From the NCBI GenBank assembly GCA_965227515.1, contig CBDDFZ010000001.1, positions 1 through 64,000 of the forward strand: a stretch of DNA of 64,000 bases, given 5' to 3'. Below are positions 30,065 through 31,716 of the stretch, one piece after another. Source of the DNA: Alphaproteobacteria bacterium. Its GTDB lineage: Bacteria > Pseudomonadota > Alphaproteobacteria > CALKHQ01. Position numbers and translations under genes: made by a program. The notes under the pieces were generated by a model. That model saw nothing but the letters and a program-made list of their open reading frames with translations. It did no database searches and was not told where the DNA came from. Position 1 is the stretch's first letter. Each line of letters opens with the position of its first letter.

Positions 30065-30469
30065 ATGGCTGATCGAAAGAAGACATTACGTGACGACGAC
30101 ATCCGCGATGCGGAGGTCGTCAGCCGGCGCGGCTTCGGCCGGCTGTTGGTCAGCGCATTGGGCGCCGGCGGCACCGCTGCCGTTGCGGCCTGCGTGCCAG
30201 CGGGTGGCGGCGGCTACACGCCGATCTCGAATCCGTCGGGTCCCTACACCGGCATATCCGACGGCGATGCCGGCAATTTTGCCGATGCAGCCGGCTACGG
30301 ACGCGGCACCTATGGCGGGTCCGGCAACTATACCGGACTGACCGACGGCGATACCGGCAACTATGCCGACGCGGCCGGTTACGGATCCGGCCAAACCTAC
30401 ACCGGCCTGACCGATTCCGATGGCGGCGGCTATGCCGACCAGGCGGGCTACGGGCGCAGCGGCTACTGA
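30065..30469 (+). CDS. Tat-signal precursor-like peptide with three YTGxxDxDxGxxADxAGYG repeats
   Basis: GGGGGG RBS; SRRGF twin-arginine motif; VAA-C possible lipobox; repeats start at 30245, 30329 and 30398. Confidence 0.8.
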   Translation: MADRKKTLRDDDIRDAEVVSRRGFGRLLVSALGAGGTAAVAACVPAGGGGYTPISNPSGPYTGISDGDAGNFADAAGYGRGTYGGSGNYTGLTDGDTGNYADAAGYGSGQTYTGLTDSDGGGYADQAGYGRSGY

Positions 30470-30483
30470 GCACGCCCGGCCGC

Positions 30484-31716
30484 ATGACCAGCAGCGGCCC
30501 CATGACAACAGACCACGCACCGGGACCGGCGTCGGGAGGCGCCGACCTCGAAACACTGCGCTGGTTGCTGCATCCGCTGCCGCTCGACCGGTTCTTCAGC
30601 GACCACTGGGAACGCAGCCACTTCCACGGCCGGCGCGGCGACGAGACCTACCACGCCGGCCTGCTGTCGCTGCGGGATATTGACGGCTATCTCGCCGACC
30701 TGACCCATTTCGGCGCCTCGATCCTGCTCACCAACGCGGGCGAGCCGGTGCCGCGCGAGAAATACGCGACCGAAAGCGACCGCATCGACAGCCGGCGCGT
30801 CATTCTGGAACACGCCCGCGGCGCGACCATCATCTTCAACCAGCTTCAGGACTACATACCGTCGCTGTTCCGGTTGTGCCGCAGCCTGGAGCTGGAAACA
30901 GGCGCCAGGGTCCAGACCAACATCTATCTGACCCCGCACAACGCCCAGGGGTTCGCCACCCACTACGACAACCACGACGTGGTCATCCTGCAAATCCACG
31001 GCGCCAAGCGCTGGAAGATCTATGGCGCGCCGATCGAAATGCCGTTGCAGGGACAGCGGTTCGAGAAGGGCCGCCACCAGGCCGGCGATGCGGTGGACAC
31101 GTTCGACCTGATGCCCGGCGACTTCCTCTACATACCGCGCGGGGTGATGCACGAGGCGGTCAGCGACGACAGGCTGTCGCTGCACATCACCACCGGCATC
31201 ATCTCGACCACGTGGAACGACGTGCTTTTCGAATGCCTGGCCGCATTCAACCTGTCTCATGCGGCGGTGCGAGGCGGGCTGCCCTGGGGCAGCAGTTTCT
31301 CGGCCGAGGCCGCGGCGCGGGTGGCGGCTACCATCAAGGACATGGCGGCCAAATTCGCCCGCGAGGCGGACGGTGCCGCTGCGCTGCGGCGCCTGCACCA
31401 GGCCTTCCTGCTGGCGCGGCGTCCCGGACTCGACGGGCAATTGATGGCCATCCCGGGCATCGACGCCATCGGCGTCGATACCGTGGTGCGGCGGCGCGAC
31501 GGATTGGCCTACACGCTGGAGCAGAACGGCGACACGGTCGTCCTGACGAGCTGGGGCGTCCAGCTCGAGCTGCCGGCGCATGCCGCCGACGCCGTACGTG
31601 CCGCCCTCGATCCACCCACGATCCGTGTCGGCGACCTGGCCGGCGACCTGGACGACGAGGGCAAGGTCACGCTGGTCCGCCGGCTGATGCGCGAAGGGCT
31701 GCTACAGCCGGCATGA
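30484..31716 (+). CDS. JmjC/cupin-4 Fe(II)/2OG oxygenase (ROX/YcfD/NO66-like) with C-terminal winged-helix-like domain
   Basis: YLTPHNAQGFATHYDNHDVVILQIHGAKRW and PGDFLYIPRGVMHEA give the HxD...H triad; ends LVRRLMREGLL. Confidence 0.88.
   Translation: MTSSGPMTTDHAPGPASGGADLETLRWLLHPLPLDRFFSDHWERSHFHGRRGDETYHAGLLSLRDIDGYLADLTHFGASILLTNAGEPVPREKYATESDRIDSRRVILEHARGATIIFNQLQDYIPSLFRLCRSLELETGARVQTNIYLTPHNAQGFATHYDNHDVVILQIHGAKRWKIYGAPIEMPLQGQRFEKGRHQAGDAVDTFDLMPGDFLYIPRGVMHEAVSDDRLSLHITTGIISTTWNDVLFECLAAFNLSHAAVRGGLPWGSSFSAEAAARVAATIKDMAAKFAREADGAAALRRLHQAFLLARRPGLDGQLMAIPGIDAIGVDTVVRRRDGLAYTLEQNGDTVVLTSWGVQLELPAHAADAVRAALDPPTIRVGDLAGDLDDEGKVTLVRRLMREGLLQPA

Follow-up and report, generated by a model that had tools for sequence, protein, structure and literature searches.

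The stretch of DNA considered here (64,000 nucleotides, positions 1 to 64,000 of the forward strand of contig CBDDFZ010000001.1 in the alphaproteobacterial assembly GCA_965227515.1; hereafter, the window) contains two adjacent genes that encode a small protein with three Asp/Gly-rich repeats behind a twin-arginine signal and a JmjC-type oxygenase, respectively. We assign a probability of roughly 60% to the reading under which this pair is a two-gene operon for a substrate and its dedicated hydroxylase: the enzyme would read an N-terminal leader of the repeat protein and hydroxylate the repeats in the cytoplasm, after which the chain would be exported through the twin-arginine translocation (Tat) system and lipidated. 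A preliminary description of the locus had proposed a product of this kind with Asp as the modified residue. The functional pairing is supported by gene linkage, co-occurrence across genomes, the separate phylogenetic position of the enzyme and a modeled contact between the two proteins, and Asp is not singled out as the target.

The linkage of the two genes was explored starting from 38 relatives of the repeat protein that were retrieved in a word-indexed search, nearly all of them annotated as hypothetical or carrying no name. A 12-row sub-alignment of these relatives served as the query for a scan of named-species genomes, one genome per species, which yielded 219 loci confirmed by tblastn; the best 80 were kept. 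A JmjC homologue is encoded within 4 kb on either side of the repeat gene in 53 of these 80 loci, so that repeat homologues usually adjoin JmjC genes, as the preliminary description had expected if the two proteins work together. Among the loci with both genes, 57 of 61 have one to four repeat genes upstream of the JmjC gene and on its strand (median gap, 101 bp), and the most common layout (25 loci) consists of two soluble-type copies, one lipoprotein-type copy and then the enzyme. When seven cassettes of different families are compared, nothing but the repeat gene and the JmjC gene is common to all, and no transporter, HD-domain enzyme or multinuclear non-heme iron-dependent oxidase (MNIO) was found as a conserved neighbor across the cassettes. 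In the window, the pair is flanked by genes for a DUF302 protein, a glycosyltransferase, a metallophosphoesterase, an EAL protein and a DUF805 protein. Judging from gene content and order, the repeat gene and the JmjC gene constitute a conserved cassette; given that related genomes are not independent of each other, these counts describe a pattern and do not amount to a statistical test.

Co-occurrence was assessed in an unbiased sample of 401 genomes from all parts of the class, 8 of which are matched by the repeat profile, one of them weakly (G183, E = 9.6e-4); the latter match, in a genome that is 83% complete and has no JmjC gene, is probably spurious. The JmjC protein matches 50 of the 401 genomes at E <= 1e-10, and the matches fall into two score groups, namely nine genomes with full-length matches of at least 195 bits and all the others at 115 bits or less, mostly confined to the catalytic core. 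Seven genomes belong to both the repeat set and the high-scoring JmjC set, and the other two of the nine encode divergent, leader-bearing small open reading frames (ORFs) directly upstream of the enzyme; a leader-bearing small ORF thus adjoins the enzyme in all nine (9/9). In a quick maximum-likelihood tree, a branch with a support of 98 (Shimodaira-Hasegawa-like approximate likelihood ratio test) divides 71 cassette JmjC proteins from a set of 13 alphaproteobacterial paralogues, and the paralogue side includes the second JmjC_2 protein of the genome from which the window comes.

The repeat protein of the window has the organization given in the preliminary description, and all the details of that account (acidic pre-segment, SRRGF, VAA-C and three Asp-rich repeats in a 134-aa ORF) proved correct on inspection. 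The N-terminus is short and charged, with KKTLRDDDI at residues 5-13, and a Gly/Pro linker connects Cys43 of the lipobox with the repeats, the 19-aa cores of which, YTG[IL][ST]DxDxGx[FY]ADxAGYG, occupy residues 61-79, 89-107 and 112-130 (units of 19-21 aa). The three units are identical to one another in 12-15 of the 19 residues, and 4-6 of the identical residues in each pair of repeats are encoded by different codons; therefore, the repeat is conserved at the protein level and does not reflect a recent duplication of DNA. At the DNA level, Tandem Repeats Finder detected no strong repeat, only a weak 12-bp array, and in the six-frame translation of the whole window the motif [TS]DxDxGxxxDxxGxG occurs three times, always inside this ORF. 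No Pfam family (E <= 1) and no NCBIfam family matches the protein, and known Ca-binding repeats (EF-hand, TSP3, RTX) gave no profile match in Pfam at E <= 1. When modeled alone with AlphaFold2, the precursor is predicted to be disordered, with a mean predicted local distance difference test (pLDDT) score of 49 and the signal helix as its sole ordered part; the best look-alikes in the ESM Atlas (score 0.86, recognition 1495) are below useful levels. The SRRGF motif resembles the Tat pattern S/T-R-R-x-F-L-K and is followed by a hydrophobic region, V40-A41-A42-C43 conforms to the lipobox pattern [LVI][ASTVI][GAS]C, and TatC is encoded in the same genome (250 bits), all of which points to Tat export and lipidation of the protein. 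A scan of the locus for promoters and terminators returned no promoter-like sites and one weak terminator-like site 3' of the JmjC gene that is no better than those in shuffled sequences.

Of 1.84 billion cluster representatives searched with a profile of the repeat protein, 758 match at E <= 1e-3, 428 at E <= 1e-10 and 57 at E <= 1e-30. The 80 loci of the species scan belong mainly to Maricaulis, Hyphobacterium, Oceanicaulis, Glycocaulis, Sphingomonadales (Aurantiacibacter, Parasphingopyxis), Rhodobacterales and Sandaracinaceae/Polyangiales, with single metagenome-assembled genomes (MAGs) labeled Anaerolineae and Mycobacteriaceae. The consensus of 771 canonically spaced units from 162 proteins is x-[TS]-G-[VI]-T-D-S-D-[TS]-G-x-Y-A-D-P-[AV]-G-x-G-R-G, and family members contain 2-11 units in about 90 to more than 300 residues. 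Patterns that we defined detect the RR motif in 165 of the 166 ORFs of the family and a Cys resembling that of a lipobox in 69 of the 166; R21 and R22 are nearly invariant in the alignment of the relatives. Apart from TAT_signal and two stray matches, Pfam recognizes nothing in the 38 members. From these comparisons, the repeat proteins appear to be a real, unannotated family. The family also appears to be undescribed: five motif strings taken from the repeat were not found in the main texts of the papers searched, and topic searches combining JmjC, RiPP (a peptide made on the ribosome and then modified post-translationally), twin-arginine, winged helix and leader returned nothing on it.

Several members of the family deserve to be mentioned individually (locus and genome numbers are ours). 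In the Hyphobacterium chromosome (L030/L051) and in most Maricaulaceae loci (L048-L114), two or three paralogous repeat genes stand in a fixed order, with two cleavable non-lipobox signals followed by the lipoprotein type directly before the JmjC gene, which suggests that in cassettes of the Maricaulaceae type one enzyme gives rise to both soluble and anchored products. A divergent precursor beside a clade JmjC gene (L126, G161:C80, 1202-1738) has a leader, an RR signal and an 11-residue, TDSDGDPRGGG-like repeat that reduces the conserved core to T-D-x-D, one further Asp and R-G-G. At L127 (G252:C32, 314-490), the ORF located upstream of an intact clade JmjC gene has 58 aa and retains a KTLTDEQIE-type leader and a single YAD-RG remnant in the absence of a hydrophobic signal region, and a gene for a TonB-dependent receptor lies 3' of the JmjC gene on the opposite strand; this ORF could be either a decayed precursor or a minimal substrate that is not exported. 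In a Polyangiales MAG (L057, 3642-4332), the precursor upstream of the JmjC gene is split over three frames (leader and lipobox, repeats, tail), which could be either an assembly frameshift or a pseudogene. One alphaproteobacterial genome (G066) has three orphan repeat genes of 300-385 aa on contigs C29, C43 and C44 (L032-L034), far from its sole JmjC cassette on contig C10; in these genes, many degenerate repeats accompany up to about 9 canonical ones. Finally, the repeat lipoproteins of Sandaracinaceae/Polyangiales (L036-L047, L053, L101) share a conserved GRGRWR/GRGRYR tail and a conserved neighborhood of housekeeping character (a HAD-type nucleotidase-like protein, a metallophosphoesterase and a methyltransferase).

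The second protein of the pair had been described as a cupin-4 oxygenase with an intact HxD...H triad located 14 bp downstream of the repeat gene, and this assignment holds: it matches Pfam JmjC_2 (PF08007) with E = 1.1e-27 and 96.5 bits against a curated cut-off of 22; no NCBIfam model matches at E <= 1. The H160-x-D162...H223 triad does not vary among the cassette homologues aligned (44/44) and K175 is conserved in at least 90% of them, so the enzyme looks active by its sequence. In the phmmer alignment, H160, D162, H223 and K175 are aligned with the corresponding residues of NO66, including the metal ligands; we take the NO66 Lys aligned with K175 to be the one that binds 2-oxoglutarate. 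Among protein sequences in the PDB, the closest by phmmer are NO66 (5.9e-30) and MINA53 (1.1e-29), followed by Bacillus subtilis YxbC (6e-11), and the similarity to the YcfD proteins of Escherichia coli and Rhodothermus is limited to about 75-115 residues in the region of residues 155-228 (1e-5 to 8e-5). The AlphaFold2 model of the oxygenase (pLDDT 91.6) is aligned by Foldseek to NO66 over its full length (E = 8.8e-30; query-normalized TM-score, TMq, 0.72-0.75; 425-444 columns), ahead of MINA53, and YcfD (TMq about 0.5) is well behind. Given this whole-length fold match, the protein has the full build of the ribosomal oxygenases (ROX), that is, a JmjC barrel, a helical middle part and a C-terminal winged helix, and is predicted to be a three-domain enzyme of the NO66/MINA53 type. 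An orthologue of YcfD (RoxA, the Arg81 hydroxylase of ribosomal protein L16), which the preliminary description had named as the identity that would undo its proposal, is ruled out, given that the similarity to YcfD is short and weak and that NO66 and MINA53 are far closer.

The C-terminal winged-helix-like domain predicted earlier is present in the model as a beta/alpha domain in an NO66-like architecture, with strands at residues 334-337, 343-348, 351-356 and 359-364, a helix at 365-375, a strand at 379-381, a helix at 391-403 and a terminal strand. The canonical RiPP recognition element (RRE) consists of three strands followed by three helices; the modeled domain has the order of four strands, helix, strand, helix and strand, and no Pfam PqqD match was obtained. 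No signal peptide is evident in the oxygenase when the sequence is read by eye.

At locus L128 (contig 2, 3020-6242), the genome from which the window comes (G000) encodes a second JmjC_2 protein, of 419 aa, that is 34% identical to the first over the core, has its own conserved, FLxDMxxMxV-like C-terminal motif and is followed immediately 3' by a gene for a 641-aa protein with tetratricopeptide repeats and a sulfotransferase domain. Its clade is more widespread, with most of the 41 other JmjC-positive genomes of the class sample scoring in its range; this protein may represent another substrate-specific ROX system.

The interaction of the two proteins was modeled in one complex, with both proteins supplied as alignments that we built and Fe included, along with three controls. 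The complex reaches an ipSAE score of 0.63 (0.63, 0.61 and 0.64 in separate runs), compared with 0.00 for the best of the three controls; of 80 solved complexes, 58 come up to the score mark that we used, as do 2 of 110 mismatched pairs, counts that carry over just roughly to a complex modeled from our own alignments with a small molecule added. The runs have at least 19% of their contacts in common, with a partner pLDDT of at least 35. The confident contacts connect residues 5-10 and 12-17 of the precursor with residues 353-400 of the oxygenase, a range that takes in the final two strands of the winged-helix domain and its long helix. Modeling of leader or core with the oxygenase had been suggested in the preliminary description, and the leader half of that suggestion came out positive: the complex model favors binding of the leader by the enzyme.

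The same region of the enzyme distinguishes two forms of the cassette. The C-terminal 40 residues of the cassette enzymes come in two versions, of which subtype A ends in ...G-K-L-V-L-V-R-R-L-V-R-E-G... and is accompanied in all cases (18 of 18) by a precursor that has a TLxDxxI pre-segment, including a precursor that is frameshifted in a MAG with the segment still present, whereas subtype B ends in ...K-L-x-A-[FY]-G... and is accompanied in 54 of 54 cases by a leaderless precursor that starts directly with MAKKGKLSRRSFL; the latter count was obtained after four apparent exceptions were resolved by eye as artefacts of ORF calling or of the pattern. The enzyme region that differs between the subtypes is the modeled contact helix, and the subtypes form two clades in a quick tree (support 84 and 89). 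The leaderless N-termini share with L8...I13 of the leader in the window the spacing of a Leu and, after four residues, an aromatic or aliphatic residue, which would let the n-region of the Tat signal itself act as the docking site in subtype B. The coordinates of all these features are given in Table 1.

Table 1. Features of the repeat protein-oxygenase locus (window coordinates).
Feature	Coordinates	Strand	Remarks
Putative precursor/substrate gene	30065..30469 (incl. stop)	+	134-aa ORF of the Tat-signal lipoprotein type with three Asp/Gly repeats
Putative leader/docking segment, residues 5-17 (KKTLRDDDIRDAE)	30077..30115	+	N-terminal of the twin arginines; TLxDxxI in leader-type relatives
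Twin-arginine signal S20 R21 R22 G23 F24, hydrophobic region and lipobox V40-A41-A42-C43	30122..30193	+	Predicted from sequence motifs
Repeat 1, residues 61-81 (YTGISDGDAGNFADAAGYGRG)	30245..30307	+	19-aa core at residues 61-79
Repeat 2, residues 89-109 (YTGLTDGDTGNYADAAGYGSG)	30329..30391	+	Usual Arg replaced by Ser, all three Asp kept
Repeat 3, residues 112-132 (YTGLTDSDGGGYADQAGYGRS)	30398..30460	+	19-aa core at residues 112-130
JmjC (ROX-type) Fe(II)/2-oxoglutarate oxygenase, 410 aa	30484..31716	+	Starts 14 bp after the precursor stop; PF08007
Catalytic core of the oxygenase	30961..31152	+	H160 (30961-63), D162 (30967-69), K175 (31006-08), H223 (31150-52)
C-terminal winged-helix-like domain, residues 334-410	31483..31713	+	Secondary structure from the AlphaFold2 model; residues 353-400 are the modeled leader-binding face

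The sequence of events that we consider most probable can be outlined as follows. The 134-aa chain would be made in the cytoplasm, where it would be disordered, and its residues 5-17 would dock onto the C-terminal winged helix of the NO66-like JmjC enzyme, in the manner of a RiPP leader and its recognition element. JmjC oxygenases require Fe(II), 2-oxoglutarate and O2, and the Fe(II)/2-oxoglutarate site would hydroxylate one conserved residue, Asp or Arg, in each TDxDxGxYADxAGxG(R)G repeat. The modified chain would then be exported via Tat, and cleavage by signal peptidase II with lipidation at Cys43 would remove the signal together with the docking segment, as the position of the lipobox and its cleavage site suggests, leaving an acidic repeat peptide that is anchored to the membrane and lies outside the cytoplasm. 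In this scheme the contact of the leader with the winged helix comes from the model, and we infer that the enzyme acts on the repeats, in which sequence the steps occur, how the chain is exported and what the product does. Given that the precursor is predicted to be disordered and that the enzyme has no evident signal peptide, the use of Tat is not explained by a need for folding and can be explained by a cytoplasmic step.

A metal-binding role of the product is plausible and fits both the DxDxG...D spacing of the repeat, which we presume to resemble that of Ca-binding loops in spite of the lack of a Pfam match, and the hosts, which are mostly marine. The RiPP label of the preliminary description goes too far: a precursor gene does lie beside that of a putative modifying enzyme (14 bp apart in the window; 53/80 and 57/61 in the loci compared above), but the products are exported proteins or lipoproteins of about 90 to more than 300 residues, and many relatives lack the pre-segment. 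A more far-reaching version of the scheme, which we put forward as speculation and think doubtful, would have the mature product as a lipid-anchored chain of beta-hydroxy-Asp sites that captures Fe, Ca or another metal at the cell envelope and parallels, at the size of a protein, the amphiphilic beta-hydroxy-Asp siderophores made by marine bacteria; the ROX winged helix would originally have been a leader reader, the nearest bacterial kin of NO66 and MINA53 would be peptide-maturation enzymes instead of ribosome modifiers, and the enzyme would hold the Tat signal until modification is complete.

Several observations weigh against the substrate-hydroxylase interpretation or narrow its range. 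There is no adjacent JmjC gene in 27 of the 80 loci, some of which reach a contig end; ten of these 27 genomes were tested, and all ten (10/10) encode a full-length clade JmjC protein elsewhere (E = 2e-53 to 1e-93), with another repeat gene beside the clade JmjC gene in five of the ten. The two genes are unlinked in four tested genomes of Sandaracinaceae/Polyangiales (L036/L118, L037/L116, L039/L120 and L046/L119), in the last of which the main repeat gene is unlinked but a short divergent copy lies beside the JmjC gene; no other candidate enzyme is conserved beside the unlinked repeat genes of this group. Pfam TAT_signal matches just 3 of the 38 members, so the Tat and lipobox calls depend on the motif patterns that we defined. 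The core half of the suggested modeling yielded no confident placement of any repeat in the active site, and the pLDDT of the partner in the complex is about 35. Given that the subtypes form two clades, the covariation between enzyme C-terminus and leader is essentially one evolutionary split, and given that 54 of 72 cassettes (subtype B) lack the pre-segment, docking of the leader is not a general mode of recognition. Finally, wherever the substrate of a ROX enzyme is known, it is a ribosomal protein.

The last of these points leads to the alternative that the JmjC protein of the window is itself a ribosomal oxygenase, its position beside the repeat gene being incidental or merely regulatory. 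The solved close relatives NO66, MINA53 and YcfD are all hydroxylases of ribosomal proteins and have the same fold and active site. Against that, the clade is patchy (9/401 genomes of the class) while ribosomal targets are universal, its members are always accompanied by a repeat or leader ORF, the complex model docks the precursor leader on the winged helix with all controls at 0.00, and a second JmjC_2 paralogue, of the more widespread clade, is encoded in the same genome, so we regard this scenario as the least probable. Also improbable, if a little less so, is a role of the JmjC protein as an export chaperone or proofreader (TorD/DmsD-like) that binds the Tat signal without modifying anything, with the repeat protein being an unmodified Ca-binding protein of the envelope. 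This would accommodate the location of the sole confident modeled contact next to the Tat motif and the spacing of the Asp residues, which resembles that of Ca-binding loops and has no Pfam match, but a pure chaperone would need neither the Fe triad conserved in 44 of 44 homologues nor the Lys, aligned with that of NO66, conserved in at least 90%.

The competitor to be taken most seriously, possible and still clearly less probable than the favored scheme, accepts that the enzyme acts on the repeats and differs in the chemistry or the target, which could be C-3 hydroxylation of the Arg in GxGRG, hydroxylation of Tyr, Thr or Pro, or a 2-oxoglutarate-dependent reaction other than hydroxylation, such as cross-linking or desaturation. 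Hydroxylation of Arg at C-3 has precedents in YcfD and JMJD5. Over the 771 repeat units, this Arg is conserved at 94% when DxD...D is used as the anchor, and the three Asp at 88-96% when GxGRG is the anchor; given that Arg is as conserved as Asp, conservation does not single out Asp. The known ROX substrates are Arg (YcfD) and His (NO66, MINA53), in or next to a Gly-rich stretch (PMC9994133), which also speaks for the alternative, and 2-oxoglutarate-dependent macrocyclization in RiPPs appears in the reference list of PMC12710340. On the opposite side, in repeat 2 of the window Ser takes the place of the Arg and the three Asp are retained, and Arg-substituted peptides were neither substrates nor inhibitors of NO66 and MINA53 (PMC9994133). 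The identification of Asp as the hydroxylated residue, made in the preliminary description, hence does not stand as given, the repeat Arg being equally conserved and the known ROX substrates being Arg and His only; between the two residues, we place Asp slightly ahead of Arg under the substrate-hydroxylase scheme.

To our knowledge, few bacterial protein hydroxylases have a known substrate, and the cassette names a likely and readily testable one. It spans Maricaulaceae, Sphingomonadales, Rhodobacterales and Sandaracinaceae, and the repeat protein has 758 cluster representatives. If the scheme is correct, the ROX subfamily, so far associated with ribosomal targets, extends to a dedicated exported substrate, and its winged helix acquires the job of reading an N-terminal leader, which bears on NO66 and MINA53 as well; a hydroxylase-based, Tat-routed type with a repeat core would join the signal-peptide RiPPs and the RiPP-lipoprotein hybrids. 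Should the product bind metal, it would be a new kind of metal-handling molecule in the envelope of marine bacteria. These implications are of relevance for the fields of both 2-oxoglutarate oxygenases and RiPPs.

Among known systems, NO66 (RIOX1) and MINA53 (RIOX2) are the closest to the enzyme of the window in both sequence and fold, sharing the three-part build, the HxD...H triad and the aligned Lys. They hydroxylate His in Rpl8 and Rpl27a, whereas the putative partner of the window enzyme is an exported repeat protein that is encoded beside it and lacks a conserved His, and the winged helix of the window enzyme is modeled as a leader-binding module. YcfD (RoxA) of E. coli and Rhodothermus, which hydroxylates Arg in L16, has the same Cupin_4/JmjC_2 fold with a winged-helix C-terminus and is only distantly related to the window enzyme by sequence and TMq. 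In PMC6006756, the ROX architecture is described as a JmjC barrel, a helical dimerization domain and a C-terminal winged helix, and YcfD is regarded as the prokaryotic counterpart of NO66 and MINA53; the clade of the window is much closer to the human enzymes than YcfD is.

JmjC enzymes that act on ribosomal precursors encoded nearby are represented by BipG, an ornithine hydroxylase of the biphenomycin RiPP pathway (PMC12707348), and CzlI, a Phe hydroxylase of the curacozole pathway that resembles the two-domain YxbC (PMC11575548). Both resemble the window system in the use of a JmjC Fe/2-oxoglutarate enzyme on such a precursor and are set apart from it in belonging to multi-enzyme clusters that make small macrocycles, compared with a two-gene cassette that has the full ROX architecture, repeated cores and export by a signal peptide. 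The routing is paralleled by the DAG-RiPPs, in which, according to PMC13056109, a precursor with an export signal is modified in the cytoplasm, exported and lipidated at the lipobox Cys, and the bufferins are metal-chelating according to PMC12452194. Both groups use an MNIO (DUF692) on Cys, in contrast to the twin-arginine signal and Cys-free tandem-repeat core of the window protein; membership in either group was rejected, no MNIO gene being conserved and only the repeat gene and the JmjC gene being kept across cassettes. Asp beta-hydroxylation is known from SmaO, on a ribosomal peptide in a RiPP pathway (PMC12186529), and from AspH, on EGF domains (PMC9994133), enzymes that belong to other subfamilies of 2-oxoglutarate oxygenases than the JmjC protein of the window.

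The closest precedent for leader recognition is provided by Bregman et al. (2025), who, in PMC12710340, describe PF08007 JmjC domains of fish and algae that carry a fused RRE-like fold, the closest bacterial homologues of which are found in RiPP-like contexts. In our model, a leader strand lies against a beta-sheet and helix at the C-terminus of a PF08007-type enzyme; the bacterial contexts in that paper are cited to literature of the lanthipeptide/prochlorosin type and not to the repeat family of the window, although its tables of RRE fusions may include the clade of the window enzyme. The statement of the preliminary description that no characterized system has such a core holds for the repeat itself, for which neither a family nor a paper was found, and is too broad for the arrangement, given that JmjC RiPP hydroxylases, signal-peptide RiPPs and RRE-PF08007 fusions have all been published and the general kind of system is already known. 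Compared with these systems, what appears to be new is the family of repeat substrates, the two-gene ROX cassette, the twin-arginine routing and the pairing of the leader with the winged helix.

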